Assembly: GCA_016935115.1 (NCBI GenBank)
Contig: JAFGRN010000002.1
Location: forward strand, 69,748-126,900
Source of the DNA: Candidatus Omnitrophota bacterium
Lineage (GTDB): Bacteria > Omnitrophota > Gorgyraeia > 2-01-FULL-45-10
Direction: 5' to 3'
Length of the DNA: 57,153 bases
The position numbers and the translations under genes are program-made. Shown one piece after another: positions 1,091-45,049 of this stretch. Under the pieces are notes generated by a model. It did not search any database and had not been told where the DNA came from. It was given only the letters and a program-made list of their open reading frames with translations. Each line of letters opens with the position of its first letter. Position 1 is the first letter of the stretch.

Positions 1091-2145
1091 AGAAAACTCC
1101 CTATGGTTCTCCTGAATCCCTCTTCCGGAGAATATCGCGGCGCCCATCCTAACTTCCGGATCCTGGTTATCCGCGGATGGGCTCTTGCTATCTCGCTCTT
1201 CATGTAACTTTCCCGTCCTGGAGCCCTATCGTATTTTATGGAGAGTTTCTTTTCGGGAAAGATCTCCGTCAACATGCGGGCAAGTTCACTCACGCTCATC
1301 TCTCCCTTTTCATCCGATATATTATAAGCGTTTCCATTCTTGCCCTTAAGAAGAACCGTAAAAAAGCCTGCCGTTGCGTCGGCAAGATAGCAGAACGTCC
1401 TCCTGGCGGCGCCGTTACCCCTGATTACAATGTCGCGGCTATGGACGACATCGGAGATGAAATCGGCATAGACCCGGCCGTCATCAAGCTTCATCCCCGG
1501 CCCATACGTATGGAAAGGCCGGACTATCTTCGCCGGAACACCGTATTGGCGGTTCCAGCACGCGCACATGGCTTCTCCGGCGCGCTTGCCCTCGGCGTAA
1601 CACGAGCGTACGGCGGCAGGATCGAGATACCCACCCATATCTTCGCCGATCGGCATCTTACGCGCCGGTATATCGCCGTATATCTCGGCACTGCTGAAGA
1701 AGAGAAACCCCTCGGACCTTTTGGCCCTGGCAAGCTCGAGAAGATTGCGGGTACCGACAGTATTAGCGGCTATAGTCCCTGCCGGGTCTTTACCGAATCT
1801 CTTCGGGCTCGAGTGGCTCGCCGCATGGATTATGTAGTGCAAGCCCCCTTTAATGCTCAATGGTTTACATACGTCCTGGACTATAAAGACGAGATCAGGC
1901 CTTCCGGCATAATGGCCAAATCTTTTTTTCGCGCGTTTCAGATCCCTGACCATAGCATAGACTTTGGCCTTCCTCCGCAAAAGAGTCTCGTTCAGATAAA
2001 GAATGGTCTCCGCCATATACGCGGGTAGAAACCCGTTCGCGCCGGATATGAGTATGGACTTGCCTTCGAACCTTCTCCATGGAAGGCGCGCGCCCCTTAT
2101 AAAACGCAGATCCTCTTCGATAACCGGATTTCTTATTTTTTTCAT
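1075..2145 (-). CDS. NAD-dependent epimerase/dehydratase (extended SDR, UXS/RmlB-like); candidate YerF-type branch reductase
   Basis: ISGANGFLPAY Rossmann motif, IIHAASHSSP, SSAEIYG, CYAEGKR (YxxxK), RPFHTYGPG. Likely start MKKIRNP at 2145 (track 2169). Confidence 0.85.
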   Translation of the reverse strand: MKKIRNPVIEEDLRFIRGARLPWRRFEGKSILISGANGFLPAYMAETILYLNETLLRRKAKVYAMVRDLKRAKKRFGHYAGRPDLVFIVQDVCKPLSIKGGLHYIIHAASHSSPKRFGKDPAGTIAANTVGTRNLLELARAKRSEGFLFFSSAEIYGDIPARKMPIGEDMGGYLDPAAVRSCYAEGKRAGEAMCACWNRQYGVPAKIVRPFHTYGPGMKLDDGRVYADFISDVVHSRDIVIRGNGAARRTFCYLADATAGFFTVLLKGKNGNAYNISDEKGEMSVSELARMLTEIFPEKKLSIKYDRAPGRESYMKSEIARAHPRITRIRKLGWAPRYSPEEGFRRTIGSFLWPTD

Positions 2146-2147
2146 CG

Positions 2148-3887
2148 TCACTTTAGGATATCCACACACATGCAGGACTTAAGCTCTCTCCTCGATAATA
2201 GCGGCTCCTGATCCTCGACGGGCCTGTTAACGGATAGTTTAGGCAGTACCAGATTATCCTGCTTGATATCAACTTCGAGAAACATGGCCTGCGGGCCGTC
2301 AAACAGCTTTTTAAGAGCCCCTCCGGCCTCGCCGGGGCGGCAGATCTTCTTTGAAGGTATCCCGTACGCCGAGACGACATTGATAAAATCAGGACTGCTA
2401 TATCCCACGACCGTTGATTGGAACCGAGAATTGAAATACTGTTTCTGGAATTGCCGCACCATTCCGTAACAATGGTTGTTCAGCAGGACAATCTTTATAG
2501 GTAAATCATAATGCGCCACCGTCTGCAGCTCCTGTATATTGAGCTGGAATCCGCCGTCACCTGTTATGACCACGACCGGCCTGTCCGGATCCGCGAAAGA
2601 GGCGCCTATTGCCATGGAGAGGGCCGATCCCATGGCTCCCATGCCGCCCTGGGTTATGAATCGCTGTGAGGCGCGTATATTCAGATACTGCGCGGACCAC
2701 ATCTGGTTCTGCCCGACGTCTGCGCATATCACCGCATCGTCCGGTAGATACGCGGACAATCTCCGCATCAAGAATTCCGGCGTTATCCTGTTTCCGGACA
2801 AAGATCCGCCCGAAGAATACCTCCTCCTGTACTCCCCGACCCTGCTCACCCACGGCCTTATTCTCGTCCTGTCATAATCGCAGATGCTGTCGTTGAGCTT
2901 TATCAGGAATTCTCTTATATCGGAATGGACCGGGATATCGGAAGAGACCTTATGCCCCAGTTCATTTTTATCGATATCGACGTGCACGATCTTCGCGCCT
3001 CTCGCAAAAGTCTCGGGCCGTGTCCCCGTCTGCCTCGTATCGAGCCTGGTGCCGAGCGCCATGACCAGGTCAGCATTTGCCACCGCCAGGTTCGCGAACC
3101 TGTTGCCGTATGTGCCTATCATGCCGGCAAAGGCCGGATCTGTGTGGGGGAACGCGTCCAGGCCCATGAGCGAGGAGACCACCGGTATCCCCGTAGCGCG
3201 CACAAATCTTAGCAACTCTCCCGTCGCATGGGATAATCTAACGCCGCCTCCGGCCAATATCACCGGACGCCTGGAGGAGCCTATGAGTCCTTTTACCCTC
3301 TTTACCGCCTTATTAACACTATCGCCCGTCTCATGCCTGCCACGGAATGGCTTCAAGCGTAACCGGTCAACATTTGAACGTTGCACATTCATGGGTATGT
3401 CCACGAGAACCGGGCCCGGACGACCAGACCTGGCGGTGAATAGCGCCTTTTCAAGATCATACCTTATCGTTGCCGGATCCGTGACAAGCATGGCGCTCTT
3501 AACTATCGGCCTCACTATATTTACGATATCCGTCTCCTGAAAACCAACCTGCCGCACAGGCTTATCAAATTTGAACTCATAGGCATTCACCTGGCCCGTT
3601 ATAAAAAGACAGGGTATGGAATCAAAATAACAGCTCGCGATACCGGTTATCAGATTGGTCGCGCCCGGCCCGCTCGTTGCCATGGCCACTGCCACATTTT
3701 CACCGATCCTCGAGTAACCTTCCGCCGCAAAAGCAGCCGCCTGCTCATGGTGCATCGATACCACGGATATCCCTTTCCGCCCGTAAAGCGAATCCAGAAG
3801 ATGCGTGGTCGCGCCGCCGCAGACCTCGAAGACGGATCCTGCGCCGTTTGCGGCAAGGAACTCTATGACATAATCTGATAGCTTCAT
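2148..3887 (-). CDS. Thiamine-diphosphate-dependent enzyme, acetolactate-synthase-like (YerE-like in this context)
   Basis: HHEQAAAFAAEGY, ATSGPGATN, GRPGPVLVDIP and the ThDP motif GDGGFQLN...LLNN. Confidence 0.88.
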   Translation of the reverse strand: MKLSDYVIEFLAANGAGSVFEVCGGATTHLLDSLYGRKGISVVSMHHEQAAAFAAEGYSRIGENVAVAMATSGPGATNLITGIASCYFDSIPCLFITGQVNAYEFKFDKPVRQVGFQETDIVNIVRPIVKSAMLVTDPATIRYDLEKALFTARSGRPGPVLVDIPMNVQRSNVDRLRLKPFRGRHETGDSVNKAVKRVKGLIGSSRRPVILAGGGVRLSHATGELLRFVRATGIPVVSSLMGLDAFPHTDPAFAGMIGTYGNRFANLAVANADLVMALGTRLDTRQTGTRPETFARGAKIVHVDIDKNELGHKVSSDIPVHSDIREFLIKLNDSICDYDRTRIRPWVSRVGEYRRRYSSGGSLSGNRITPEFLMRRLSAYLPDDAVICADVGQNQMWSAQYLNIRASQRFITQGGMGAMGSALSMAIGASFADPDRPVVVITGDGGFQLNIQELQTVAHYDLPIKIVLLNNHCYGMVRQFQKQYFNSRFQSTVVGYSSPDFINVVSAYGIPSKKICRPGEAGGALKKLFDGPQAMFLEVDIKQDNLVLPKLSVNRPVEDQEPLLSRRELKSCMCVDILK

Positions 3888-3897
3888 GTGAAAGCGC

Positions 3898-4674
3898 CTA
3901 CTTCCATATCTTCCAGGGGGCCTTTCCGGTCTGCCACATCTGCTCCAGTTCCAGTTTATCTTTCAGCGTATCCATGCATTTCCAGAATCCCGTATGTTTG
4001 TAAGCCGTCAGGCGCCCATCCTTCGCAAGGTTCTCCAGGGGTTCCTTCTCCCATGTCGTCTTGTCGCCTTTTTTTATGTACCTGAAGATCCCGGGTTCCA
4101 GCACGAAGAAGCCCACATTGATCCATGCGCCGTCGCGTTTCGGCTTCTCCAGGAAAGATGATACCTTATTATCTCCCCTGATATCGAATACGCCGAATCT
4201 CCCCGCAGGCTGGATAGCCGACAGGGTGGCGAGTTTTCCGGAGTTTTTATGCGATCTCAACAGGGCATTCATGTCTATATCGCCCACACCGTCCCCGTAT
4301 GTCATCATGAAGGTCTCATTGCCCACATACTTCTCTATCCTCTTCAGCCTTCCGCCGGTAAAAGTCTCCAGGCCCGTATCTATCATCGTAACTTTCCAGG
4401 GCTCGGACGCGCTGGTATGTATCTCCATCCTGTTATTCTTCAGGTCAAAAGTCACATCGCTCATGTGCATAAAGTAGTGGGAAAAATATTCCTTCACCAC
4501 GTATGATTTATACCCGAGACAGATTATGAAATCGTTGAATCCGTAAGACGAGTATATCTTCATCACGTGCCACAATATCGGCTTCCCGCCGATCTCCACC
4601 ATCGGTTTCGGTATGGCGCCGGTCTCTTCTCCTATTCTCGTTCCATAACCGCCGGCAAGAATGACTACTTTCAT
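3898..4674 (-). CDS. rfbF: Glucose-1-phosphate cytidylyltransferase
   Basis: MKVVILAGGYGTRIGEET..IPKPMVEIGGKPILWHVMK, TGGRLKR, MTYGDGV, GFWKCMDTLKDK. Start at 4674 with AGGAGG (track 4728). Confidence 0.95.
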   Translation of the reverse strand: MKVVILAGGYGTRIGEETGAIPKPMVEIGGKPILWHVMKIYSSYGFNDFIICLGYKSYVVKEYFSHYFMHMSDVTFDLKNNRMEIHTSASEPWKVTMIDTGLETFTGGRLKRIEKYVGNETFMMTYGDGVGDIDMNALLRSHKNSGKLATLSAIQPAGRFGVFDIRGDNKVSSFLEKPKRDGAWINVGFFVLEPGIFRYIKKGDKTTWEKEPLENLAKDGRLTAYKHTGFWKCMDTLKDKLELEQMWQTGKAPWKIWK

Positions 4675-4690
4675 GCGTGCATACCTCCTG

Positions 4691-6088
4691 TTAGAATACG
4701 TTCTCCTTTTTCCTGCTGGACTTGCCAAAGCTCAGCCGTCTCAGGATCGCGGGTATATTGCCTCCGACCTCAATAAGCCATCTCGGATTTTTCAGCACAA
4801 AACAGGCGATATTCAAGATCGCGCCGGGCCTCATGTAGAACGCTTTCGACGCATGCTCGGCAAGGCTCTCTATGCGTTCATCGGATAATTCGCATATTCT
4901 CTTGTCCCTGTATCTGCCTTCCAGTTCGGATCCACGCAGAATAGAAAGCATAAAATAATTTGCCAGCGTAGATCCGCAATTCAACGAATAGCTGATGGTT
5001 TTTTTGATAGTATCCTCGGTGTCGCCGGGCAAGCCGAATATGTAAGATACGGCCGTAACAAAACCTATCCTGTTTGCGATCTTGAGCAATCTTTTTAAAG
5101 CCTCCGGCTCCCCCGGATCACGATTGATGCCCCTAAGCACTTCCGCATGCGCCGCCTGTAAGCCAAAGGAGAGAATATCGCATCCTGCCCGCTTCATGAG
5201 CCTAAAGACCCTCTCCGTGTCGGTTCTGATGCTGAATGGATGGAATATGGCCATCCATCTTACTCTATATGGCCTCTTTATCAGTTTCTCACAGAACTCT
5301 TCGATCCAGTCATTTGTCATTCCGAATATGTCATCCTGGAACGCAATATACTTGACTCCATATTTACCGATCACTTCGTCTATTTCGGCGATTACATTAT
5401 CGACGCTGCGCCTTCTGTATTTGTTGCCCCAGGACTTATGGGAGGTGCAGAAGAAACATTTATACGCACAGCCCCTTGAGGCGATCATCGTTATGTATGG
5501 CTTTCTCATGCCGAATAAAAAGTAGTCATGGTACGCGTTTATATCGACTTTTGACCTGTCCGGGAACGGTATTGTATCGATATTCTGTATCAGTTCCTGC
5601 GGCGCCGACTTCACGACCCTGCCGTCTTTTTTGTATGAGATACCTTTTATAGTGTCTATACTTCTTGCGCCGTTATAGTAGTCTACTATATCCTGTATTG
5701 TCTTTTCACCCTCGCCATGCACCACTATGTCGCATCCGTCTTCCAGAAATGTGGAGTTCGTGAGCGTATTCGGCCCTCCCACCAGCACCGGGATTCCGAG
5801 CCTCTCCTTTATCTTCCGGCTGTAGTCCTTGACCTTATTTTCCTGCGGGTCGGAACAGTAAAATCCCACCATGTCAAATTCTTTCAACTTGCCGGATAAC
5901 CAATCGAAATCAAACGGAATGACCGATTGATCGAATATATCTGTCTTGACACCCTTCTTCTCCAGAACGGCCGATAAATACTGGAGGCCCAGTTGGGGCC
6001 TTCTCTGGACGCTGTGCACTATGCCATCCCCCAAAAGATATAATTTTTCTTCGTGTACTAGATATACAAACGCCATCTTCTTTATCAC
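4691..6088 (-). CDS. B12-binding-domain radical SAM protein
   Basis: QLGLQYLSAVL, VLVGGP, VVHGEGE in the N-terminal domain; SRGCAYKCFFC (CxxxCxxC). Confidence 0.9.
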   Translation of the reverse strand: MIKKMAFVYLVHEEKLYLLGDGIVHSVQRRPQLGLQYLSAVLEKKGVKTDIFDQSVIPFDFDWLSGKLKEFDMVGFYCSDPQENKVKDYSRKIKERLGIPVLVGGPNTLTNSTFLEDGCDIVVHGEGEKTIQDIVDYYNGARSIDTIKGISYKKDGRVVKSAPQELIQNIDTIPFPDRSKVDINAYHDYFLFGMRKPYITMIASRGCAYKCFFCTSHKSWGNKYRRRSVDNVIAEIDEVIGKYGVKYIAFQDDIFGMTNDWIEEFCEKLIKRPYRVRWMAIFHPFSIRTDTERVFRLMKRAGCDILSFGLQAAHAEVLRGINRDPGEPEALKRLLKIANRIGFVTAVSYIFGLPGDTEDTIKKTISYSLNCGSTLANYFMLSILRGSELEGRYRDKRICELSDERIESLAEHASKAFYMRPGAILNIACFVLKNPRWLIEVGGNIPAILRRLSFGKSSRKKENVF

Positions 6089-6101
6089 GGCAACCCCTCT
6101 G

Positions 6102-7211
6102 TTATAGTTTGCAGCATCTCGCGCAAGCGGGCAACAACCCTCTCTTCAGAATCCGCCTGAACTTTTTATATCTCTCCCCATTCCAGACATTCGAAAAACC
6201 GCTATCAAATACATTGCCCATCCTGCAGGAGATAGACTCACACGGATACACATCCCCGTTGGGATAGATAAATAGCCCTCTCAACGCGAAAAGGCACTTC
6301 CTCCCGGAGCTAAAGTCCGGAGAGTACCAGCTCTTCAGCTCGTCAACACTCAATTCGGGCGTAAACGCGACCCTGTTTCCGAGCTCCGAGCGCAGTTTCG
6401 TTATCTTCTCCACATATCGGTCCTCTTTGCCACGGATATCGTAGATATAGCTCATCGCCTTTACATCGCCCTCTTCGAATATCTTCTTCAGCGCGTCATT
6501 GCAGCGGGAGCGCTCCTCCGTTGAATAGAATGTAGGATGGCCGAATCTCACAAGGTCCACGCCCAGAGAGGCGCTCGCGGAGGCAATATTCTTCAGGTCG
6601 TCCAGGTTTCCCTCGCAGATCGTTGTATGCGTAACGACCTTTGTATTTCTGCGACGGTTGTCAGTAAATGCCTTTATACCCTTCACCATCTTATCGTACG
6701 CGCCATTCATCGATAGGATGGTGTCGTGGACATCCTTCGTGCCGAGCAGCGAAAATACGATGTAATCCAATTTTTCCAGCATCAGCCTTTCGGCCGTATC
6801 CTTATCGAGCAGCGTGCCGTTGGTAAATATACCGACGCTTAAGCCCCTCTTCTTTACGGCTTTCACTATATCGACTATGTCTTTTCTTACGAACGGTTCT
6901 CCTCCGAAGAGTATTATGCTCGGATGATACCCGGCCACGTCATCCAGAAACCGCTCTATCTTATCCATGGGTATGTCGGCCATATCCTTCTTATTCAGGA
7001 TCTCGCTTAAGTTGCACATGGCGCATCTTGCATTGCATCTCATGGTAACAAAGAGCGCTACATTAAGCACATTCGAACTTCGGCCGGAAGCAGACAGAAA
7101 ATCGCGGGGCAGAAGAAACAGTTCCTTCATAAGCGTTCCCAGAGAGTAGGCCTTAAATGTCCTTAAATTGCTGTACTGCCTCTTTGCCACGCCGGCCAAT
7201 TCCCGTATCAT
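6102..7211 (-). CDS. Radical SAM protein with C-terminal SPASM/Twitch domain
   Basis: CNARCAMC, FGGEPF, FTNGTLL; C-terminal C..GDVYPC..CARCC. Confidence 0.88.
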   Translation of the reverse strand: MIRELAGVAKRQYSNLRTFKAYSLGTLMKELFLLPRDFLSASGRSSNVLNVALFVTMRCNARCAMCNLSEILNKKDMADIPMDKIERFLDDVAGYHPSIILFGGEPFVRKDIVDIVKAVKKRGLSVGIFTNGTLLDKDTAERLMLEKLDYIVFSLLGTKDVHDTILSMNGAYDKMVKGIKAFTDNRRRNTKVVTHTTICEGNLDDLKNIASASASLGVDLVRFGHPTFYSTEERSRCNDALKKIFEEGDVKAMSYIYDIRGKEDRYVEKITKLRSELGNRVAFTPELSVDELKSWYSPDFSSGRKCLFALRGLFIYPNGDVYPCESISCRMGNVFDSGFSNVWNGERYKKFRRILKRGLLPACARCCKL

Positions 7212-8662
7212 GATGCCTTTCTCATGCTGACAATGGATCTGAATGCCGTAAAATAGCGCGATATATCCTCGGCCCCTCTTATGGAGAGCAATTGCCGCAT
7301 GATATATGCGGGCCTGAAATAGTAACTCCTATATGCGCCGACTATGGCGTTCTTGAGCTCTTTTTCTGTCATGCCATCCGGGATATAATGCAGCTTTGTC
7401 TCCTCGGCGTCTATGAGCGAAGTGTATTCGTTATAATCCTCGTGAAGTATCTTCCCCGCTTTTTTCGCCATCAGGTAGAGCTCGTTTCCGGGGAAGAGTA
7501 TCACGGTAAAAAAATTCACCACGTCGAGGCGCATGCGCTTCGCGAATTCTACTGTCCTCTTTATGGTCTCGAGAGTCTCCCCCGGCAATCCGAATACAAA
7601 CGTCGCCCGCACGTTCAGTCCGGCCTTCTTCGCGAGCCGTATGCCGTTCTCGTTCTGCTCGACGGTAACGCCTTTCCTGATTATATTAAGCATCCGCTGG
7701 TCGCCGGATTCAATACCATATATCACCTGCCAGCATCCCGCCCGCTTCATCTTTCTGAGTATATCGAGATTGACGGTGTTGACGCGGGTGAGGCATGTCC
7801 ATGGCACTTTCATCTTTCTCTTCAATATCTCGTCGCATATTCCTTCGACTCTCCCGATATCAAGCGTGAAAGTGTCATCCATGAACCTTATTTCTTTCGC
7901 GCCGTGAACCCTGATAACATGCTCCATTTCATCCACGACATATTTCGGCGAATGGGCCCTGAACCTGTTGCCGAACACCTTCCTGTCGCAGAAGATGCAC
8001 TGATAGGGACAGCCCCTGCTTGATATCATCAGGCCCACCGGTTTCTTTATGTAAGAAGCCGGCACCGGCCTGTACCTGTCCAGCGAAGGATAGAGATGCC
8101 TTGCCGGGAACGGCAATGAATCCAGGTCATCTATATACAGCCGTTCTTTCGTAAATGCGACAGCCCCGTCCTTTCTCAAGGCCAGCCCCTTTATGTCACT
8201 GTAATCGGTTCTGCCCGCCATCATGGCATTGACGAGCTCGAGCATAGTCTCCTCGCCTTCGCCGAGCACCCCGATGTCATACGGGCCTTCCCGCATCGTT
8301 TTCTCGGGTGCCGAACAAAGCTGAGGCCCGCCTATGACCAGAGGGACACCTGGAAACGACTTTTTTATCTCCCCGGCCATATCATTCGCAGTGTTGATAG
8401 TCAGTATCGTAGCTGTTATCCCTATCACGTCCGGAGACTCTCTGCCTATTCTGCCAATGATCTCGTCCAGGGTCTTCGGCTCCCCTATGCAATCCATGAT
8501 CTTCACTTTTATGCCGTTTTTCTCCAGCAGGGCCGCTATGTAGCCGACCCCCATGGTAGGCAGTACATTGGCTATGTCCTTCAGGCCTCCCGCCTGTTTT
8601 GATATGGATAGCGGGGGGCTGATAAACAGCACCTTAAAATCAGATCTCTTTTTCCCGTTCAT
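7208..8662 (-). CDS. B12-binding-domain radical SAM protein
   Basis: TMGVGYIAALL, VIGGP, VLGEGE; SRGCPYQCIFC, GIESGDQ. Confidence 0.92.
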   Translation of the reverse strand: MNGKKRSDFKVLFISPPLSISKQAGGLKDIANVLPTMGVGYIAALLEKNGIKVKIMDCIGEPKTLDEIIGRIGRESPDVIGITATILTINTANDMAGEIKKSFPGVPLVIGGPQLCSAPEKTMREGPYDIGVLGEGEETMLELVNAMMAGRTDYSDIKGLALRKDGAVAFTKERLYIDDLDSLPFPARHLYPSLDRYRPVPASYIKKPVGLMISSRGCPYQCIFCDRKVFGNRFRAHSPKYVVDEMEHVIRVHGAKEIRFMDDTFTLDIGRVEGICDEILKRKMKVPWTCLTRVNTVNLDILRKMKRAGCWQVIYGIESGDQRMLNIIRKGVTVEQNENGIRLAKKAGLNVRATFVFGLPGETLETIKRTVEFAKRMRLDVVNFFTVILFPGNELYLMAKKAGKILHEDYNEYTSLIDAEETKLHYIPDGMTEKELKNAIVGAYRSYYFRPAYIMRQLLSIRGAEDISRYFTAFRSIVSMRKAS

Positions 8663-8680
8663 AATAGTATCCTGGTCACC

Positions 8681-9649
8681 TCATCCGAAAAATGCGTCGC
8701 AATACCTGCATACCGGCGGATATCTCTTCTCGATATGGCTCTTTCTCAGAGAGACTGCTTTATCACCGTTAAAAATTTCCTTTAAGCTGTTCTTCTTCAG
8801 GTCCCCTATCGGCAATGTGCTGTCCATATCCACGCAGCAGGGAAATACGATCCCGTCCCACCTGATGACAGCGTTCCTCCATAATGTGCGGCAGGCCGTC
8901 TCCCTCGCTTTGTACTTGTTGCCTATGAGCGGTTCAACGTCGATATTATCTACTTTGCCCTGCCATTCCTTTTTTACCATCTCTATGTAATCATCCCCAT
9001 CCGCTATCCTCGCCACATTTATCCCTATCCGTATTCCGGAGAGCGATCTGTCCCTTCTCTCTATAAGATATTCCATATTCTCCTTCAGCGCCCCGTACGG
9101 CGTTCCCCTGTTTTTCTCATAGCGGTCACCGATGCCTTCAAGCGAAAAGATTATCTCGTCGAGGCCGTTACTGATCACGCCATCGGCTTTCTCGCGGGAT
9201 AGCAATATGCCGTTCGTGTACGTGGATACATATATATTCCTCTTTTTCGCGTACGCTATCATGTCGAGTATTTTCGGGTGAAGAAATGGCTCGCCGTACC
9301 TGCTGAGTATAATGCATGTAATCTGGGGATTGGCATCGATTATTGATTTATAAAACTCCAGATCCATGAGCCCCCTCGGCTCATTATTTCTCTGCGTGGA
9401 GCAGTGCCCGCACTTTAGGTTACAGAGATTGGTCGGCTCGATCAGTATCCCCTGTGGCAAAAATGACTTAGGTGACCGGGCATACCGAGATAACTGATTG
9501 AGTAGTTCCCCTGCAAAGGAACGGTAGGTTCCGAAATACTGCATGAGCCTTCCGGCTATCCTGTGATCCTGGCTGAACATCGCGCCGATCAAATTATAGA
9601 TCAGCAACAATGGATATTTGGCCGGCGGTATCTTTATCTTTTTTGGCAT
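8681..9649 (-). CDS. Radical SAM protein with SPASM/Twitch domain
   Basis: EPTNLCNLKCGHC, YGEPFLHP, TNGILL; C-terminal C..DGIVFPCC..VCRYC. Confidence 0.88.
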   Translation of the reverse strand: MPKKIKIPPAKYPLLLIYNLIGAMFSQDHRIAGRLMQYFGTYRSFAGELLNQLSRYARSPKSFLPQGILIEPTNLCNLKCGHCSTQRNNEPRGLMDLEFYKSIIDANPQITCIILSRYGEPFLHPKILDMIAYAKKRNIYVSTYTNGILLSREKADGVISNGLDEIIFSLEGIGDRYEKNRGTPYGALKENMEYLIERRDRSLSGIRIGINVARIADGDDYIEMVKKEWQGKVDNIDVEPLIGNKYKARETACRTLWRNAVIRWDGIVFPCCVDMDSTLPIGDLKKNSLKEIFNGDKAVSLRKSHIEKRYPPVCRYCDAFFG

Positions 9650-10491
9650 ATGAACGTCACCTCCAGCGGCTTCCCCGCCACATCCCCTATTCCGGAAAGC
9701 GCGCCGAATACCATCTTGCTTAAGAAGCCCCCCGGAAAGAATGTCGCTGGATATTTTGAAGGCTCTATATTCCTGACCCGCATACCGAGCGATTCTATGG
9801 CGCTCTTCAGGGTCTTCTTCGAGAAGAAGGTGGAATGATGGATCGGGTGGCCTTTTGCAACCGGGCCCCTGATCAACCCGAAAGAAAATTTGTACAGGTA
9901 TTTCGATATCTCGTAGATAAGGCTGTCCTCCATGGTAGTCAGGACAAACAGATATCCGCCGGGTTTCAATAAAGATGCCGCGTCATTCAGAAAAGTCACA
10001 GGGTCCTCCGAATGGTCGATTACGTCCCACAGCGTGACCACATCGAACTTCTCATTACCGAATTTTGTCTTATCAAACTCCCCGCTAACAACGTCCAACC
10101 CGTGCTTATCCCTGGCATACCCGGCGGCAAATTCTGAAATTTCTGATCCACGCGCATTCCAGCCCCTGCCCCTGGCTATATTTAAGAATGTCCCTATGGC
10201 ACATCCTATGTCTAGCAGCGTACCTTTTAACGGAACATATGCCTGGACAGTATCCATCCTTGCATTGAATAACTCCTCTTTCTCTCTGGGATTGTTAAAG
10301 AAGTAGCCGGCCTGCTCATCCGTAAAGTACCTTTCGGAATATAGATCTTTCGAGGAGTCGGCTGTTAGAAAAACATCCCTGAATATCAGGCCGCAGGGAC
10401 GGCATCGCACAATATTAAATTCGTCCAGCCTGAAGAGGATCTCCCACTCTTTCTTCCTGCACAGCGGGCATTCGGTCTTCGGGCTATGCAT
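9634..10491 (-). CDS. Class I SAM-dependent methyltransferase with N-terminal Zn-ribbon
   Basis: CPLC..CRPC, LLDIGCAIGTFL, FDVVTLWDVIDH. Start MHSPK at 10491 with AAGGAG (track 10539). Confidence 0.88.
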   Translation of the reverse strand: MHSPKTECPLCRKKEWEILFRLDEFNIVRCRPCGLIFRDVFLTADSSKDLYSERYFTDEQAGYFFNNPREKEELFNARMDTVQAYVPLKGTLLDIGCAIGTFLNIARGRGWNARGSEISEFAAGYARDKHGLDVVSGEFDKTKFGNEKFDVVTLWDVIDHSEDPVTFLNDAASLLKPGGYLFVLTTMEDSLIYEISKYLYKFSFGLIRGPVAKGHPIHHSTFFSKKTLKSAIESLGMRVRNIEPSKYPATFFPGGFLSKMVFGALSGIGDVAGKPLEVTFICQKR

Positions 10492-11443
10492 TGTAACGCT
10501 CCTTTTCTTTGGTGCAACCGAATGCGTGGCGCACAACATAAGATGGGGTCTGATTATTCGTCATGAAGAGCCTTCCCACATATTCCCCTATCAAACCCAG
10601 CATGATCAGCTGTACACCGGCAAAGACGAGGATAGAAGTCAATATAGCGGTTACGCCTATGGGTGTATCCGGGTTCAATATTTTGTCAATGATAAAGAAT
10701 ATTGTCAGCAATGCTCCCAATATCGAAAAAAGGGCCCCGAGGATCGTGCTCATCCTGAGCGGATATACGGAAAAATTAACAAACATGTTCGTCCATAATC
10801 TCAGTAACTTTCTCAAGGTATATCCCGATTTTCCCTTATGCCTCTTCTCGTGCCTGACAAGCACCTCGCCGATGTTCCTGGTGCTTCGCCATATGAGGCC
10901 GTCTATATAAGGGAATGGCCCGTTATACTTTACGACCTCCGATACGATAAATCTGCTCATGCACTTGAAACTGGAGAGATACAGGTCCCTCGGCTTGTTC
11001 AGTAGAAAGCTGGCCACCAGGTTATTAAATCCCGATCCGAGGTTCCTGAACAGGGAATGTTCTTTCTTTGCGTAATAACCGTAAACAACATCAAATTTCC
11101 CGCTTACCGCCTTCTTGACCAGGGTCTCTATCTCCTCGGGAGGGTTCTGGAAATCATCGTCCACTATTACCGCGTAGTCTCCTGTCGTATGAGCCAATCC
11201 CGCCATCACCGCATTATGTTCTCCAAAGTTTTTCGAGAGACAGATATACTTGACGATCGCGCCGTATCTCTTGAACAGGGACAGGCACATTTCGTGGCTA
11301 TTGTCCGTGCTTCCGTCATTGACAAGCACTATCTCGAGATCGTAAGGCTTAAGGCTCGAGACCAGTTTTTCCGCCAACTGCACGATAGTCCCGGCGCCCT
11401 GAAATACCGGGATAACAACACTGATCTTCATATTCGCCCCCAT
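10484..11443 (-). CDS. GT2 glycosyltransferase, ArnC/GtrB-like polyprenyl-phosphate glycosyltransferase
   Basis: SVVIPV, VNDGSTD, SKNFGEHNAVMAG, DDDFQNPPE, two C-terminal TM helices, LGLIGEYVGR. Confidence 0.88.
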   Translation of the reverse strand: MGANMKISVVIPVFQGAGTIVQLAEKLVSSLKPYDLEIVLVNDGSTDNSHEMCLSLFKRYGAIVKYICLSKNFGEHNAVMAGLAHTTGDYAVIVDDDFQNPPEEIETLVKKAVSGKFDVVYGYYAKKEHSLFRNLGSGFNNLVASFLLNKPRDLYLSSFKCMSRFIVSEVVKYNGPFPYIDGLIWRSTRNIGEVLVRHEKRHKGKSGYTLRKLLRLWTNMFVNFSVYPLRMSTILGALFSILGALLTIFFIIDKILNPDTPIGVTAILTSILVFAGVQLIMLGLIGEYVGRLFMTNNQTPSYVVRHAFGCTKEKERYNA

Positions 11444-11444
11444 C

Positions 11445-12080
11445 TTAAACCTTCTTGTTCTTGCGGCATATGAACGACACGGCCGCTATGGGATATCCTT
11501 TGTCCAGCCTCTTCATCTCCACGCTGAAACCTATCCTCTCCAGCACATCCTTCAACCTGCCGCTCTCCAAGTAATAGACCTTTTCCATCCTGTTGAGGAT
11601 CAGGTCCACTCCCAGCGCGAACAGGTACTTGTGGAACGGCCTCTTATCTATGTCCTGCACGAGCAGCAACCCGCCGTCTCCCAGGGCTTCGTAAATATGC
11701 TTCAGAAAGTCCTCCTGCCCGGAAGACGGAATATGATGCAGAAGGTCGCATGCCACTATCGTATCGGGCTTATCAAAAACCAGGTTAAGCGCGTCCGCCT
11801 TCCTGAATTGCACGTTCTTCCTCGCACCCACGGTGCTCCTGGCCAGCGCGATCTTCTCCTCTGACAGGTCGATACCGATGACATTTCTCCTGTCCGATCT
11901 CATCGCCATGATATTAGACAAGATGCCCGCTCCGCAGCCTATGTCGTATACGGTGCCCTCCGCGGGGACCAGATTCTCTATGGCGTCCACGGGATTGACG
12001 AGCCATCTGGCCCTCACATAAAACCGCTGGGCTGCCGGCAGGCCGGCATACAGCTTTAGCAGATCGCCCGGCATCTTCAT
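11445..12080 (-). CDS. Class I SAM-dependent methyltransferase
   Basis: VYDIGCGAG, GIDLS, DLLHHI. Likely start at 12080 (ATGA overlap with the upstream stop; track 12128). Confidence 0.85.
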   Translation of the reverse strand: MKMPGDLLKLYAGLPAAQRFYVRARWLVNPVDAIENLVPAEGTVYDIGCGAGILSNIMAMRSDRRNVIGIDLSEEKIALARSTVGARKNVQFRKADALNLVFDKPDTIVACDLLHHIPSSGQEDFLKHIYEALGDGGLLLVQDIDKRPFHKYLFALGVDLILNRMEKVYYLESGRLKDVLERIGFSVEMKRLDKGYPIAAVSFICRKNKKV

Positions 12081-13228
12081 GATAAGCGCCGCCCGCGTCC
12101 GTTGTAAAAACGCCTTACGCAATTGCATATCCTCATTACTTCTCCGTCGGTCAGCGCCGGAAAGACAGGTAGGGTAAGGATCTTTCGCGACAATGCTTCC
12201 GCGCGGGGGAAGTCACCGGCCCTGTATCCCAGCCCCTTAAACGCCCCCTGCAGGTGAAGAGGCACCGGATAATGGATCTGGGTCTCTATTCCGTTTTTCA
12301 ACAAAAAATCCCTGAGCATATCCCGCTTCTCGCACCTTATCACATACAGGTGAAAGACATGCTTTGAATTCCTGTCGTATGAGGGAAGTTCGAGGGCCCC
12401 GATATCTTTCAGGCATTCGCCGTACAGGCGCGCTATCGCCGACCGCCTCTTGTTAAAACGGTCCAGGCGCCTCAGCTTGCCGCGCAGTATGGCCGCTTGA
12501 ATCTCGTCGAGACGGCTGTTGATACCCTCTATGTCGCAACTATATCTCGTAGCCTGCCCATAGTTCCTTAGAAGTCTCAGCTTCGCGGCAAGCTTTCCGT
12601 TGTTGGTTACTACCATGCCTCCGTCGCCGTAACAGCCGAGATTCTTCGTCGGATAAAAACTAAAGGCTCCCAGATCGCCGAACGAACCCACCTTCCTGCT
12701 ATTATGCGAAGCTCCATGCGCCTGGCAGGCGTCTTCGATCACCGCCAGGCCATGTTTACGCGCAATCTTCATAACCCCGCCTATGTCGCATGGATTTCCG
12801 TAGAGATGCACGGGTACTATCGCCTTTGTCTTTCCGGTTATCGCCCTCTCAAGCTCCCTTATATCCAGATTGAATGTATCCTCATCTATATCCACAAACT
12901 TCGGCGTGGCACCCGCGGAAACGATAGCCATGGCCGTAGGTATCGCCGTATTGACGGCCGTTATGACTTCATCGCCCCTGCCCACAGCCAGCGCCATCAG
13001 CGCCAGCTGGAGCCCTTCGGTGCCGGAAGCGACTCCGACGGCATTCGAGGATCCTATATACTCCGCAAACTCGTTTTCGAAAGCCTCGAGCTCTTTTCCA
13101 AGTATGTACCAGCCGCTGTCGAGAACCCGTTTCACCGAGCGCATAACCTCCCCGCGGATAGTGCCATGCTCCCTCTTCAAGTCGCACACGAGGATCTTCT
13201 TACCAGTATTTTTCCCTGTTCTTTTCAT
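12077..13228 (-). CDS. DegT/DnrJ/EryC1/StrS PLP aminotransferase (FdtB/QdtB-like)
   Basis: VHLYG, IEDACQAHG, FSFYPTKNLGCYGDGG, NSRLDEIQAA. Confidence 0.92.
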   Translation of the reverse strand: MKRTGKNTGKKILVCDLKREHGTIRGEVMRSVKRVLDSGWYILGKELEAFENEFAEYIGSSNAVGVASGTEGLQLALMALAVGRGDEVITAVNTAIPTAMAIVSAGATPKFVDIDEDTFNLDIRELERAITGKTKAIVPVHLYGNPCDIGGVMKIARKHGLAVIEDACQAHGASHNSRKVGSFGDLGAFSFYPTKNLGCYGDGGMVVTNNGKLAAKLRLLRNYGQATRYSCDIEGINSRLDEIQAAILRGKLRRLDRFNKRRSAIARLYGECLKDIGALELPSYDRNSKHVFHLYVIRCEKRDMLRDFLLKNGIETQIHYPVPLHLQGAFKGLGYRAGDFPRAEALSRKILTLPVFPALTDGEVMRICNCVRRFYNGRGRRLS

Positions 13229-14198
13229 AATACCTTACCGTTTTTCGAAGGCCTTCCATAAAATCCGTCTTCGGCCTCCACCCGGTTATCCCGGAAAATT
13301 TTGAATAATCCGCATAATAGTCACCCACTTCTATCTTCTTCTTGTCATCCGGAAAATCTATAAGCCTGTATGATCCTGATCCAGTAACCCCTATTATAGC
13401 CTTCAGGGTATCGAGGACGCTTACAGGCTTACCCGAGCCGATATTATAAACCTCCCCGTTAGTCTTATCGGTCGCCGCCGCCAGTATCAGCGCGTCCACG
13501 ACATCATCCACATAATTGAAATCCCTTTTCTGGGAGCCATCTCCGTATATCGGTACCTCTTTGCCCTCGATCGCCATCCGGACGAACCAATTAAGGAATC
13601 CCTGTTTGGCATGTTTCATCTGGTGTCTGGGCCCGAACGTATTTGTGAGCCTTAAGGATGTGGCTCTTATCCCGTAGACATTGTTGTACAGGATATGGTA
13701 CCACTCCCCTGCCATATTGTTTATACCGTTGACGTCCGTCGGACACATGGGATGCTTCTCGTCGACGGGGAGATACTGCGCCCTGCCGTACTGTCCCCTC
13801 GTGCCGGAGAAGACGATCTTAACACCGGGGTTATTTTTCCTGCAGGCCTCGAGTATCGTAAGCTGGCTCCGGCAGTTTATCTCGAGATCCGTGTACGGAT
13901 CCGCCATGCTGTCGATATGGCTCAGAGTGCCGGCGAGATTGAATATGAAATCCTGCCCCTTCACGAGGTAATCCATGCCGGGGCCGTCCCGCACATCGGC
14001 GATATTTATCTTCACTCTCTCTTTTATCCCATCGACATTGAAGAGGTTCCCGCCGTAATCGGGCAGGAGCGAATCGACGATGAGCACCTCGGAGCCGAAT
14101 TGCACGAGCCTGTGGGCCAGCGTGCTTCCAATGAAACCGAGGCCGCCGGTTATCATGACCTTGCTGTTCTTCAGAACCTTCTCCTGATCTATGGCCAT
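13200..14198 (-). CDS. NAD-dependent epimerase/dehydratase (extended SDR)
   Basis: ITGGLGFIGS, FNLAG, GTRGQYG, RLTNTFGPR, QKRDFNYVDD. The catalytic YxxxK position reads NGINN, which is atypical. Confidence 0.88.
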   Translation of the reverse strand: MAIDQEKVLKNSKVMITGGLGFIGSTLAHRLVQFGSEVLIVDSLLPDYGGNLFNVDGIKERVKINIADVRDGPGMDYLVKGQDFIFNLAGTLSHIDSMADPYTDLEINCRSQLTILEACRKNNPGVKIVFSGTRGQYGRAQYLPVDEKHPMCPTDVNGINNMAGEWYHILYNNVYGIRATSLRLTNTFGPRHQMKHAKQGFLNWFVRMAIEGKEVPIYGDGSQKRDFNYVDDVVDALILAAATDKTNGEVYNIGSGKPVSVLDTLKAIIGVTGSGSYRLIDFPDDKKKIEVGDYYADYSKFSGITGWRPKTDFMEGLRKTVRYYEKNREKYW

Positions 14199-14223
14199 CT
14201 TCCGCGCCTCGCTCCTTTAAACA

Positions 14224-15621
14224 TCAGATGAAATTGGGATGTTCTTTATCCTGGTCCTTGACAACCAGAAATTTCAGGAATAGTACGCCTGTCCTGAAGA
14301 AATCAACCGGGCTCTCAACCATGACCTTGCACAGCGAAAAGAGCGTGTTTACCCGCCAGTAGAATGCCTTGTATAATTCTTTCTCTATCGATATCATCTT
14401 CTTTTCATAAGATGCGTCCTTGAAGAGATTGCGGTAGGGAAACAGCTTGAAGTCCATGCTGCCCTTCAATCTGTCAAAGAGCGGAGTGCCCGGATACGGC
14501 GTCAATTTGCTCACTATGACAAAATCGAGCTTCGACCTGCGCAACCCCTCCTTATTTTTCGCCATGTCATCCGCCGTCTCCACCGGCGCGCCTATCATCA
14601 TGAATCCGGAGGATTGTATGCCGGCGTGCCTCACCCAATCTATCTTCCGGAGGATCTCCGACGCTTTACTGCCCTTATTGTAATAATCCAGTACCTTCTG
14701 CGAAAAACTCTCCACGCCTATGTATATCCTCCTGCAACCCGACCTCTTCATGACGGCCAGGAGGCCGCGGTCGAGCGTATCGACACGGCTCAGGCAGGTC
14801 CACCTGATTCTGAGCCTCTTTCTGATGATAAGGCCGCATATCTTCTCCACCCTCGCCTTATCTATCACAAAAGTGTCGTCCGTAAAACGGAAGGTCCTGT
14901 ACCCCTTGCCCATCAGGTATTCTATCTCCGAAACTATATTCTCAGGAGACCTCATGACGAGCTTCCTGCCGTATGATGTTACACAGTATGTACAGCCGAA
15001 CGGACACCCCCTGGCGGACTGAATAAGGGCTACCGGGCCCCGGAGGAGCATCTCCCTGTAGTTATTCGCCGGGAGCATCGACGGATCCGGGAACGGCATC
15101 TTATCCAGATCGGCTATCCGCTCCGGGGGGTTGATCACATCACTCCCCCTGCAGGCAAGGCCGGGTATCCCCTCCGGCTTCGCGCCGCTCTCCAGGGCTT
15201 TTATGAGCCTGGAGAGGCATAATTCGGCTTCGCCTTTTATGATGTAGTCGATGTTGGTATTACTGAGGACCTCCAGCGGGAAAACCGATGGATAATAGCC
15301 AAATGCTACCATCTTCACGCCGGGGGCGCGGTTCTTTATGCTCACCACCGTGTCGATATCGCCGGCAAAGCATTCCATTCCGGTCATGGTGACGATCATA
15401 TCCGGCTTCACGTCATCCATCACACCCATAACGGAGTCCAGATCCTTCTCCTCGGCTATAGCATCCACCACTGAGACTTCGGACCTGTTCCATTCCTTCA
15501 CGGCGGAAGCGCAGGACAACAGCTCCTGCGGCGGGAAGAGAAACGAGCGGGAATTATAAGAACCGCAGAAGCGCCTTATTATCCTGTCCTTGTTCGGAAG
15601 ATTCAGAAACATTACCTTCAT
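14224..15621 (-). CDS. B12-binding-like-domain radical SAM protein (divergent N-terminus)
   Basis: ARGCPFGCTYC, IKGEAE, GVESFS. N-terminal PPQELL replaces PLGL. Confidence 0.88.
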   Translation of the reverse strand: MKVMFLNLPNKDRIIRRFCGSYNSRSFLFPPQELLSCASAVKEWNRSEVSVVDAIAEEKDLDSVMGVMDDVKPDMIVTMTGMECFAGDIDTVVSIKNRAPGVKMVAFGYYPSVFPLEVLSNTNIDYIIKGEAELCLSRLIKALESGAKPEGIPGLACRGSDVINPPERIADLDKMPFPDPSMLPANNYREMLLRGPVALIQSARGCPFGCTYCVTSYGRKLVMRSPENIVSEIEYLMGKGYRTFRFTDDTFVIDKARVEKICGLIIRKRLRIRWTCLSRVDTLDRGLLAVMKRSGCRRIYIGVESFSQKVLDYYNKGSKASEILRKIDWVRHAGIQSSGFMMIGAPVETADDMAKNKEGLRRSKLDFVIVSKLTPYPGTPLFDRLKGSMDFKLFPYRNLFKDASYEKKMISIEKELYKAFYWRVNTLFSLCKVMVESPVDFFRTGVLFLKFLVVKDQDKEHPNFI

Positions 15622-28047: not shown

Positions 28048-29377
28048 GCTTTTCCCTTTTATTACGATCAAAAAAAGCCGGAGCGGCAAGGATACAATAC
28101 AGAGGTATCAGCGGTACCGCGTACCTGCCTATGGCGTCCAGTAAAGAGTACATGAGGTTTACATACAGTATTATGACTGCCAGGGCTATCCACCGATCCC
28201 AGATATATATGTTCTTTATCATCGCTATAAATACCAGCAGGATCAGTATGTAAGCGATCGATCTGCTCATGCCCTTCATAAGCGCAAGGACCAATTCCCC
28301 GTTTCGGGTCTTTGAAAAATATTTGGTGACGCTCTCTTCATTCAGAAGAGGAGTGTATGTAAAAGCTGTCATTTTTATTCCCTCTATGAAGGTATATCCC
28401 AGATACCTGAACGGATGTTCCGATATCTTCCGGAAGGCTTCTCCCGCCATCTTCTTGTCTATCTCTCCCGGCGGCATACCCTGCTTCGCGTACTCATCCT
28501 CCAGCGCCATTTCCCGCTCCAGGTCTTTAAAAAAGTACCTGTTCGATACGGTGATTATATCGGGAAAGAGTTTCTTCCCCAGATATTCGGAGAAGCTGCA
28601 CGTTACAGTGGCCATGAGCTCCCTCGGAGAATCGTCTATCTTCTCTGCCCGCGACCAGATGACCATGCCTCCCCGCGAGGCCATCGAAAATGTATTGAAG
28701 ACCATCTTATTTCTTATCGGCCAGACGGAAATAATTCCCATGTAGACAGCGATAAGCAGGACGCTATATACGACAAAACGCTTTATTTCCGCCTTTTTAA
28801 CAATGCGCGATATGAAAACCATGGCAAGTATGGCAAACGGCAGGAACAGTACTATGGTCTTCGTCAATGTCAATAATCCGAATACCGCGCCGCACACGGC
28901 AAAGCGCAGGGCGGTCTGGCGCTTCAACGCCAGCAGCAGTAATAACACGCTCAGGCATAATTCGAATGTAAACAGGGTCTCGCTGAGTATGTATGACGCC
29001 GTATTCGCCAGCGTCGGAAAGACGGCGACCATTATGCCCGACAGAAAAGCGGCATTTTCCGAAAAGATATGCCGCGCTATAAAATACGCCATTACAGCTG
29101 TCATGGCATGCAATAGAATCTGTACGAAAACCACCGGTATCGGGTTATGCCCAAATGCCCTGTATACGGCCGCCAGGAATACCGGGTAAGCCGGCTCCCG
29201 ATACATTGTGGGAAGATACGGGGCGCTCTCGCTCTGGGAAAAGCCGCGGCCGCAGGCCAGGTTATACCCGATCCTGTCATACTGCGTGGCGTCCGGACCC
29301 ATTGCCGGAGAACCGAACATGATAAATATTCCGGCCGTTAATATGCCCAGTACCGATATGATCAATATTTTACGCAT
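28040..29377 (-). CDS. GT-C membrane glycosyltransferase (ArnT/PMT-like)
   Basis: PDATQYD, REPAYP, SETLF, GLLTLTK, RYAVPLIP; multiple TM helices. Confidence 0.82.
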   Translation of the reverse strand: MRKILIISVLGILTAGIFIMFGSPAMGPDATQYDRIGYNLACGRGFSQSESAPYLPTMYREPAYPVFLAAVYRAFGHNPIPVVFVQILLHAMTAVMAYFIARHIFSENAAFLSGIMVAVFPTLANTASYILSETLFTFELCLSVLLLLLALKRQTALRFAVCGAVFGLLTLTKTIVLFLPFAILAMVFISRIVKKAEIKRFVVYSVLLIAVYMGIISVWPIRNKMVFNTFSMASRGGMVIWSRAEKIDDSPRELMATVTCSFSEYLGKKLFPDIITVSNRYFFKDLEREMALEDEYAKQGMPPGEIDKKMAGEAFRKISEHPFRYLGYTFIEGIKMTAFTYTPLLNEESVTKYFSKTRNGELVLALMKGMSRSIAYILILLVFIAMIKNIYIWDRWIALAVIILYVNLMYSLLDAIGRYAVPLIPLYCILAAPAFFDRNKREKHE

Positions 29378-39429: not shown

Positions 39430-39433
39430 ATCA

Positions 39434-43560: not shown

Positions 43561-43582
43561 AGCAACCTCCCAATCTATGCTG

Positions 43583-45040: not shown

Positions 45041-45049
45041 TTCGGTAAT

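Follow-up and report, generated by a model that had tools for sequence, protein, structure and literature searches.

The 57-kb window analysed here (the whole stretch of 57,153 nucleotides, contig positions 69748-126900) comes from an 82%-complete, 1.40-Mb assembly of a Candidatus Omnitrophota bacterium recovered from a sediment metagenome. The entire window is one minus-strand glycan locus carrying nine radical S-adenosylmethionine (rSAM) genes, seven of the B12-binding type and two of the twitch type. Sugar-nucleotide genes are present (RmlABD, two of the UDP-glucose dehydrogenase type, Gmd, and a TylC3-type C-methyltransferase), together with three DegT aminotransferases, many short-chain dehydrogenases/reductases (SDRs), at least ten class I methyltransferases, a Wzx-type flippase, and glycosyltransferases (GTs) of families GT1, GT2, and GT4 as well as several GT-C membrane enzymes (PMT_2, GT87). 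The locus would combine rSAM sugar tailoring with lipid-carrier glycosylation, both of known kinds. Four consecutive rSAM genes, named Twitch1, B12-A, Twitch2, and B12-B in transcription order (genes 1-4), are the subject of this analysis; their coordinates and those of the other features discussed are collected in Table 1.

Pfam searches bear out the alternation of SPASM- and B12-type rSAM genes, all on the minus strand, that a preliminary description had reported, and the tight packing is likewise borne out: 18 nt separate Twitch1 from B12-A, B12-A and Twitch2 overlap by 4 bp (ATGA), and 13 nt separate Twitch2 from B12-B. Both twitch proteins have the N-terminal extensions noted there, about 58-75 residues ahead of a CxxxCxxC motif that begins at C76 in Twitch1 and C59 in Twitch2, and family alignments indicate that these extensions are kept among orthologues. 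Identity is 26% between Twitch1 and Twitch2, in the N-terminal half only, and 31% between B12-A and B12-B, so that the two pairs are old paralogues and a recent tandem duplication of a SPASM and B12 pair is ruled out. B12-A and B12-B have class B architecture, with a B12-binding domain (PF02310, 77 and 47 bits, respectively) followed by the rSAM domain, the CxxxCxxC motif being C218/C222/C225 in B12-A and lying at 207-214 in B12-B. A transmembrane (TM) segment is absent from all four proteins. The next open reading frame (ORF), 3898-4728, was assigned a TTG start at 4728 that overlaps B12-B by 38 nt; because the RfbF model (TIGR02623, 405 bits) aligns only from residue 19 and an ATG at ~4674 (MKVVILAGG...) is preceded by an AGGAGG site, there is no real overlap.

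Table 1. Coordinates of the four rSAM genes, of neighbouring genes in the window, and of multi-rSAM reading frames in related loci.
Feature	Coordinates	Strand	Length	Remarks
Twitch1	8681-9649	minus	322 aa	Pfam Radical_SAM 7e-16, SPASM 2e-15
B12-A	7208-8662	minus	484 aa	Pfam B12-binding 1e-21, Radical_SAM 7e-25
Twitch2	6102-7211	minus	369 aa	Pfam Radical_SAM 2e-19, SPASM 4e-13
B12-B	4691-6088	minus	465 aa	Pfam B12-binding 3e-12, Radical_SAM 2e-21
MT23, class I SAM methyltransferase (Methyltransf_23)	9634-10539	minus		between GT2 and Twitch1
GT2, ArnC/GtrB-type, polyprenyl-phosphate	10484-11443	minus		C-terminal TM helices
MT227, class I methyltransferase	11445-12128	minus	227 aa	conserved together with DegT gene
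DegT_12k, DegT-family sugar aminotransferase	12077-13228	minus		Pfam 411 bits
SDR_13k, extended SDR	13200-14198	minus		NDP-sugar epimerase or 4,6-dehydratase type
B12-type rSAM paralogue	14224-15621	minus	465 aa	degenerate B12 domain
PMT_2 / GT-C membrane glycosyltransferase	26305-28089	minus
Multi-rSAM ORF, L125	4400-7123
Multi-rSAM ORFs, L126	4307-7033; 8523-11297
Multi-rSAM ORF, L127	757-3714
Multi-rSAM ORF, L128	4286-6988

The conservation of these genes differs from what their arrangement suggests. The preliminary description had looked to a four-gene order shared with other genomes, and synteny does not show one: the alternating four-in-a-row is peculiar to the source genome. The gene set is largely conserved, and only the first three of the four genes form a conserved cassette, in which GT2, usually MT23, Twitch1, B12-A, and Twitch2 recur at 59-86% identity to the window in loci L001, L002/L003, L004, and L024, the last from a genome of the same genus as the source (G002). 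(L004 and L023 are the same record, and L012, from G005, holds the same cassette as L004.) MT23 is kept in L001, L002, L003, and L024 and missing from L004. In L002, L003, L004, and L024 a PMT-type GT-C gene, a 43-46% orthologue of the PMT_2 gene at 26305-28089 of the window, stands directly 3' of Twitch2, where L001 has an unrelated set consisting of an unknown gene, a deacetylase, and FkbH. Orthologues of B12-B (68% identity) lie upstream of GT2 in L002, L003, and L024, giving the order B12-B, GT2, MT23, Twitch1, B12-A, Twitch2, GT-C, and are absent from the 20-kb L001. B12-B is rare in the phylum (5 of 301 Omnitrophota genomes at E<=1e-90), and among the 301 sampled Omnitrophota species close orthologues of all four genes were found in one other genome only (G002). 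A tie between B12-B and the downstream CDP-sugar genes (RfbF and an ALS-like thiamine-diphosphate enzyme) was considered and rejected, the orthologues elsewhere adjoining GT2 or methyltransferase genes and not RfbF.

No pair is more widely conserved than B12-A with Twitch2 behind it: the two genes adjoin in 11 of 12 distinct orthologous loci, in which identities to the window range from 42 to 86% for B12-A and from 43 to 75% for Twitch2. These loci include a Saccharibacteria metagenome-assembled genome (MAG; L026), Nanoarchaeota (L009, the same record as L027), Woesearchaeota (L030), and an unclassified archaeon (L028). Nearby genes include a polyprenyl-phosphate-type GT2 along with either SDR_13k and DegT_12k orthologues or RmlA/RmlB. 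The archaeal loci and those of the candidate phyla radiation (CPR) have B12-A and Twitch2 and lack a close orthologue of Twitch1 or B12-B. From locus to locus, B12-A and Twitch2 rise and fall together in identity (r=0.95), as expected if the two are inherited and transferred as a unit. Twitch1 orthologues are found beside a B12-A-like gene and a GT-C gene in L006 and L007 (46-47% identity), and of 20 Twitch1-like loci sampled, 11 have a B12-type rSAM next to the Twitch1-like gene or fused with it. At a contig end in L008 (6551-10459), orthologues of B12-A (62%), Twitch2 (51%), and Twitch1 (47%) occur together in a different order, with S-adenosylhomocysteine hydrolase and LptF/G genes and not glycosyltransferases as neighbours.

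Gene fusions connect the same activities in single polypeptides. L010 encodes a 752-aa protein in which a GT2 domain precedes the B12-A orthologue. The best solved relatives of this GT2 domain are ArnC (1.9e-26), dolichol-P-mannose synthase (8e-13), and GtrB (6e-10); the rSAM portion stands in place of the membrane helices of ArnC. Four Omnitrophota genomes encode B12-binding, rSAM, rSAM, and SPASM domains in a single ORF of 900-985 aa, that is, a B12-type enzyme joined to a Twitch1-like enzyme, and one more ORF combines a B12-type enzyme with a region resembling Twitch2, which Pfam registers only as a second rSAM stretch. The best matches to the Twitch2 profile include proteins that carry from two to four rSAM domains each (P0267, P0272, P0247, P0251), such as a 1,927-aa protein with four rSAM and three SPASM domains plus a B12 domain (P0267) and an rSAM-SPASM-rSAM-GT2-rSAM chain (P0272); such polypeptides look like assembly lines of radical enzymes. 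No other evidence speaks as strongly as these fusions for consecutive action of twitch and B12-type rSAM enzymes on one substrate, and for this substrate being the one handled by a polyprenyl-phosphate glycosyltransferase.

The auxiliary cysteines of the twitch proteins define their type. In the family alignments the SAM-cluster cysteines (C76/C80/C83 in Twitch1, C59/C63/C66 in Twitch2) are all invariant, and the only invariant C-terminal cysteines are C253, C271, C314, and C317 in Twitch1 and C306, C324, C363, and C366 in Twitch2, giving a C-x17-C ... C-x2-C spacing in both. PF13186 scores 57 bits for Twitch1 and 50 bits for Twitch2, and neither family has the seven to eight conserved C-terminal cysteines of a full SPASM domain. 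The four-cysteine pattern, which we take to be the single-cluster twitch pattern of BtrN and not the seven-cysteine SPASM pattern, indicates that Twitch1 and Twitch2 are of the twitch type with one auxiliary cluster, so that of the earlier SPASM/Twitch label the second half stands and the first, in the sense of a full SPASM domain, does not. Twitch1 has a fifth cysteine, C272, beside a ligand cysteine and conserved in at least 90% of the family; Twitch2 reads PCE at the equivalent place and has no fifth conserved cysteine, its further invariant residues being H162, H225, E291, Y296, and R352. In AlphaFold2 (AF2) models (pLDDT 86.7 for Twitch1 and 91.5 for Twitch2) the extensions of 75 and 58 aa, respectively, form two to three helices without a beta-sheet, and these helices are amphipathic (hydrophobic moment, muH, 0.5-0.7).

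A specific structural relative of either twitch protein was sought by fold search, and only generic SPASM/twitch matches were obtained (TM-score ~0.6, 12-20% identity). The best Foldseek matches of Twitch1 are DesII (top), SuiB, BtrN (TMt 0.72, the best-covered fold match), and BlsE, and those of Twitch2 are SkfB, BlsE, SuiB, DesII (in the top 10), and PqqE. By sequence, the best PDB match of Twitch1 is BtrN (4e-7), and those of Twitch2 are CteB, SpeY (second-best, 9e-9), and BlsE. No NCBIfam model comes near its cut-off for either protein, which, together with the generic nature of these relatives, makes both uncharacterised families. Twitch1 has ~27 orthologues at 41% identity or more, and its wider profile matches in 141 of 301 Omnitrophota genomes, with up to seven copies. 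Searched against 1.84 billion representatives, the Twitch2 profile gives 7,533 clusters at E<=1e-30, a family of ~7,500 clusters at 50% identity.

Distant relatives of Twitch2 (27-33% identity, L031-L102), which occur in anammox and other Planctomycetota, Nitrospirota, Omnitrophota, and deltaproteobacteria, provide a lead on chemistry. Of 66 assessable loci, 35 have a DegT gene immediately upstream of the rSAM gene in the same orientation, with an overlap of the two genes in 23 of these 35; a DegT gene is within 3 kb in ~53 of the 66. This branch is translationally coupled to a divergent DegT-family pyridoxal-phosphate enzyme in loci of lipopolysaccharide (LPS) or O-antigen type; one LPS-type example, L033 (8709-11110), has two GT9 genes, methyltransferases, a GT4, and WbqC.

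The genes upstream of the block in the window would serve an amino-sugar and lipid-carrier pathway. GT2, separated from the block by one methyltransferase gene and directly upstream of the cassette in relatives too, matches ArnC (PDB 9hwj) over its full length (9e-44, residues 6-309) and GtrB (4e-34); its score of 170 bits against NCBIfam model PRK10714, for which the equivalog cut-off is 529, indicates a member of the ArnC/GtrB family and not ArnC itself. Its Kyte-Doolittle hydropathy over 19 residues (KD19) reaches a maximum of 2.69 at residue 234, near which a TM segment lies. The best solved relatives of DegT_12k are C-3 aminotransferases (7b0d, DesV, QdtB, WlaRG, WbpE), at 434 bits for 7b0d, 355 for DesV, and 329 for QdtB, with ArnB (209 bits) and perosamine synthase far lower. 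DegT_12k orthologues (44-70% identity) accompany B12-A and Twitch2 in bacteria and archaea, and SDR_13k orthologues occur in the same loci at 41-88%. The B12-type paralogue at 14224-15621, in which Pfam detects Radical_SAM only, is kept in L001, L002, and L024. No specific PDB relative was found for MT23.

Taken together, these features indicate, with a probability estimated at roughly 0.62, that the four genes encode tailoring enzymes of a surface-glycan pathway in which a horizontally mobile SDR/DegT/GT2/GT-C cassette is combined with consecutive radical steps on an amino sugar. The grounds are that the whole window is one glycan locus, the conserved cassette, the adjacency of B12-A and Twitch2 with their co-varying identities, the fusions, the DegT coupling, the four-cysteine domains, and the ArnC-like GT2, as well as the fact that the closest solved relatives include BtrN, SpeY, BlsE, and DesII, which act on sugars or cyclitols. 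From the domains, cysteine ligands, synteny, fusions, and phyletic pattern we infer the substrate, the types of reaction, and the nucleotide- or lipid-linked stage as follows. The SDR and the DesV/QdtB-like aminotransferase, plus a methyltransferase, would make an amino-deoxy nucleoside diphosphate (NDP)-sugar, which the ArnC-type GT2 would load onto polyprenyl phosphate; B12-A and Twitch2, aided by Twitch1, would carry out consecutive radical reactions on that sugar; and the GT-C enzyme would transfer the finished sugar outside the membrane. The twitch enzymes, each with one Cys-ligated auxiliary cluster, would abstract a sugar C-H hydrogen, after which Twitch2 would most likely oxidise the carbon to a ketone, as do BtrN and SpeY, and Twitch1 might epimerise it. 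Methylation is the default reaction of class B rSAM enzymes, and the B12-type enzymes would add a C-methyl group in the manner of GenK and GenD1 or, less likely, rearrange the ring in the manner of HpnJ. B12-B would be an extra, positionally free B12-type tailoring enzyme of the same pathway and not the partner of Twitch2.

Several observations weigh against this assignment. Peptide maturases rank as high as sugar enzymes among the Foldseek matches, and among curated models B12-A matches best not a methylase but HpnJ, for which ring contraction is the putative reaction. MT227, considered as a DesVI/TylM1-like sugar N,N-dimethyltransferase, gave only generic class I methyltransferases in the PDB search and so lacks specific likeness to sugar N-methyltransferases. 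Enzymes of the DesV/QdtB type act on NDP-sugars, so at least the Twitch2 step would be NDP-linked and not lipid-linked. Expression lends no support, three metatranscriptomes of the same study having given no contigs on the region, which makes them uninformative. Finally, L025 is the exception to B12-A/Twitch2 adjacency and indicates that Twitch2 is able to function without B12-A. In this high-GC MAG labelled Verrucomicrobia, a Twitch2 orthologue (61%) is accompanied by SDR, DegT, and ArnC-like GT2 genes at 8093-14313, with no B12-type rSAM and a divergently transcribed GT-C, a minimal Arn-like module with a single radical enzyme.

The preliminary suggestion that a twitch enzyme oxidises a sugar ahead of transamination gains support from the DegT adjacency, which parallels the BtrN/BtrS pair. 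In BtrN/BtrS radical dehydrogenation is followed by transamination, and in DesI/DesII transamination is followed by radical deamination. BtrN-type dehydrogenases use an auxiliary cluster ligated entirely by Cys as their outlet for electrons, and a C-3 aminotransferase requires a 3-keto sugar; the Cys-ligated cluster of Twitch2 and the C-3 type of DegT_12k therefore favour a radical sugar dehydrogenase. The four-cysteine pattern of both twitch proteins matches that of the BtrN/SpeY-type dehydrogenases, and the sequence likeness is weak (E-values of 4e-7 for Twitch1 to BtrN and 9e-9 for Twitch2 to SpeY). Within the sugar-tailoring assignment, a dehydrogenase is the leading candidate for Twitch2 at a little short of even odds, a role of some other kind comes next at clearly lower odds, and an epimerase and a DesII-like lyase are each less probable again, and equally so. 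For Twitch1, the extra cysteine C272 could support epimerisation as in NeoN, an epimerase that uses a cysteine as hydrogen-atom donor.

The stage at which these reactions would occur is indicated by two sets of features that point in different directions. The gene order between the polyprenyl-phosphate GT2 and the GT-C points to a lipid-linked sugar, as do the GT2/B12-A fusion, the rSAM-GT2-rSAM chains, and the amphipathic N-terminal helices. The DegT coupling and the use of NDP-sugars by DesV/QdtB-type aminotransferases point instead to a cytoplasmic NDP-sugar step for the Twitch2 family. We lean slightly towards Twitch2 acting before loading and B12-A at or after loading, on the lipid-linked sugar. 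A bolder proposal, which is tentative and on balance doubtful, is that B12-A and Twitch2, with Twitch1 optional, form a mobile cassette that, at the membrane and ahead of the GT-C step, edits the C-H bonds of an amino sugar linked to polyprenyl phosphate. If this were true, the sugar would be C-methylated and also oxidised or epimerised, or else have its skeleton rearranged; the system would be an anaerobic radical counterpart of donor tailoring by ArnD or DprE1/E2; and horizontal exchange would connect Omnitrophota, CPR bacteria, and DPANN archaea as holders of the cassette, from which the multi-rSAM polypeptides would have been elaborated.

The proposed pathway can be compared with several characterised systems. 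Like BtrN of butirosin and SpeY of spectinomycin biosynthesis, the twitch proteins are compact rSAM enzymes with a single four-cysteine C-terminal twitch cluster, and the translational coupling of the wider Twitch2 family with DegT genes is like that of BtrN with BtrS. They differ in identity (12-18%), in their extra conserved N-terminal helices, in a setting of surface glycan and lipid carrier and not of an aminoglycoside, and in that the immediate partner of Twitch2 is a B12-type rSAM. DesI/DesII likewise couples a DegT-family enzyme to an rSAM acting on an NDP-6-deoxyhexose, and DegT_12k is DesV-like; however, DesII has no auxiliary cluster and ~15% identity, and the minimal cassettes have no second aminotransferase. 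The garosamine branch of gentamicin biosynthesis (GenD2, GenS2, GenN, GenD1) oxidises, transaminates at C3, methylates, and then C-methylates with a B12-rSAM, and class B C-methylases (GenK, Fom3, TokK, CysS) share the architecture of a B12-binding domain plus rSAM. The comparison with the garosamine branch is one of pathway logic and not of orthology: oxidation there is NAD-dependent, whereas here it would be radical and performed by a twitch rSAM, the closest curated model of B12-A is HpnJ, and the substrate may be lipid-linked. Three-component lipid-carrier glycosylation (ArnC/ArnD/ArnT, GtrA/B/C, PpgS/Rv3779) shares with the present locus the ArnC-type GT2, the GT-C, whose gene comes after the cassette in relatives, and an amino-sugar branch of SDR and DegT ahead of these. 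ArnD and DprE1/E2 (decaprenyl-P-ribose epimerisation) are precedents for tailoring a lipid-linked donor. In contrast, the tailoring enzymes here would be rSAM enzymes, for which these systems offer no known precedent, a formyltransferase and deformylase are absent here, and the aminotransferase looks to be of the C3 type and not the ArnB type.

The alternative that survives best, although unlikely, is that B12-A, with Twitch2, is an enzyme of the HpnJ or calditol synthase (Cds) type whose reaction, ring contraction or rearrangement without methylation, would turn an amino sugar on a lipid into a carbocyclic (cyclitol-like) or otherwise skeleton-altered unit. HpnJ (TIGR03471) is the best NCBIfam match of B12-A (226.7 bits, residues 53-459), and the route of HpnI (a GT2), HpnK, and HpnJ acts on lipid-linked glucosamine, as Cds does on a lipid-linked hexose (PMC13459092). 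The present cassette too couples a GT2, an amino sugar, and a B12-type rSAM, with GT2 and B12-A fused in one case, and both known systems are examples of radical chemistry on lipid-anchored sugars. Nevertheless, the scores of B12-A and B12-B (138.9 bits) fall far below the model's cut-off of 577.6, and the 57-kb window holds no hopanoid genes, so neither protein belongs to HpnJ proper. HpnJ is the top match of every other B12-type paralogue of the window as well, including that at 14224-15621 (159.9 bits, full-length), so the likeness is generic; the best PDB matches of B12-A are AprD4, TsrM, TokK, OxsB, and CysS. The HpnJ module also differs in having no twitch partner and a carrier other than polyprenyl phosphate, the mechanism of HpnJ is itself unproven, and the usual GT-C reaction could not transfer a carbocycle from polyprenyl phosphate.

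The model drawn from the preliminary description makes the four-gene block the unit and pairs Twitch1 with B12-A and Twitch2 with B12-B; by the action of each pair, one and the same NDP-sugar would first be oxidised or epimerised and next C-methylated. The tight alternation of the genes favours such pairs, as do the frequent position of Twitch1-like genes beside a B12-rSAM (L006, L007, and the 11 of 20 further loci) and the co-occurrence of all four genes in L002 and L024. This arrangement is nonetheless quite improbable, being contradicted by synteny: B12-B adjoins Twitch2 in no relative, the conserved neighbour of Twitch2 is B12-A, and the archaeal and CPR loci do without close orthologues of Twitch1 or B12-B. 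The pairing of twitch and B12-type enzymes is thus a recurrent theme, although the conserved pair is 2+3 and not 1+2 and 3+4. The observation made in the preliminary description is confirmed and its interpretation partly supported, while the four-gene arrangement itself is incidental.

A target in the lipid, such that the rSAM enzymes would methylate or cross-link the isoprenoid or acyl chain of a glycolipid anchor, merits very little credence. B12-type rSAM enzymes do methylate hopanoids and glycerol dialkyl glycerol tetraethers (GDGTs), GDGT-MAS is among the distant matches and a ladderane-lipid B12 rSAM model among the NCBIfam matches, and the amphipathic N-terminal helices would be consistent with such a target. 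However, the constant partners are SDR, DegT, RmlA/RmlB, and glycosyltransferases and not lipid-synthesis genes, a recycled polyprenyl carrier is an unlikely substrate, and none of the four proteins is membrane-spanning.

Least credible of all is that the twitch proteins are peptide or protein maturases, acting on peptides made by ribosomes and modified after translation (RiPPs) or as anaerobic sulfatase-maturing enzymes (anSMEs), placed in a glycan locus by chance: the SPASM Pfam matches, the presence of SkfB, SuiB, CteB, and anSME (E 0.009 in the PDB search) among structural and sequence matches, and a Twitch1 orthologue 4 kb from two sulfatase genes in L007 are outweighed by gaps within the block of 18 nt or less, which leave no room for a precursor gene, by extensions without the beta-sheet of a RiPP recognition element, by the four conserved auxiliary cysteines where anSME has two auxiliary clusters, by the lack of any curated maturase model near its cut-off, by neighbours that across phyla are constantly glycan genes, and by the absence of PF00884 sulfatases from the 82%-complete source assembly, compared with matches in 10 of 14 control genomes. 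Both maturase roles therefore fail every testable feature, and the preliminary view that these are sugar-pathway rSAM enzymes is upheld on this point. The sulfatase-family genes of L007, a JGI metagenome contig, are two of ~700 aa at 1367-5879, upstream of the Twitch1 orthologue (46%), and are the sole hint of sulfatases.

To our knowledge, nearly all known cases of sugar tailoring by rSAM enzymes come from antibiotic pathways, and a full-text literature search turned up no paper that describes rSAM cassettes in loci for surface glycans. The present analysis ties two large uncharacterised twitch-rSAM families and one B12-type family into surface-glycan assembly, with a minimal cassette defined as SDR, DegT, GT2, B12-A, and Twitch2, and the enzymes are shared by ultra-small anaerobic bacteria and archaea (Omnitrophota, Saccharibacteria, and DPANN archaea). 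Knowledge of the reactions would define new carbohydrates, whether C-methyl, keto/amino, or rearranged sugars, would yield new anaerobic biocatalysts, and would explain how host-dependent nanobacteria diversify their surfaces.

The glycan locus extends beyond the window. The whole 126.9-kb contig is an almost purely minus-strand sugar-pathway array with ~20 rSAM-type ORFs, amounting to ~9% of the 1.40-Mb assembly and reaching at least 70 kb past the window. Within the window, the GC content is ~0.50 except at 39000-50000, where it falls to 0.38-0.44 over a block of GT2, B12-rSAM, two methyltransferase, GT87, and TPR genes, which suggests that this stretch is a separately acquired module.

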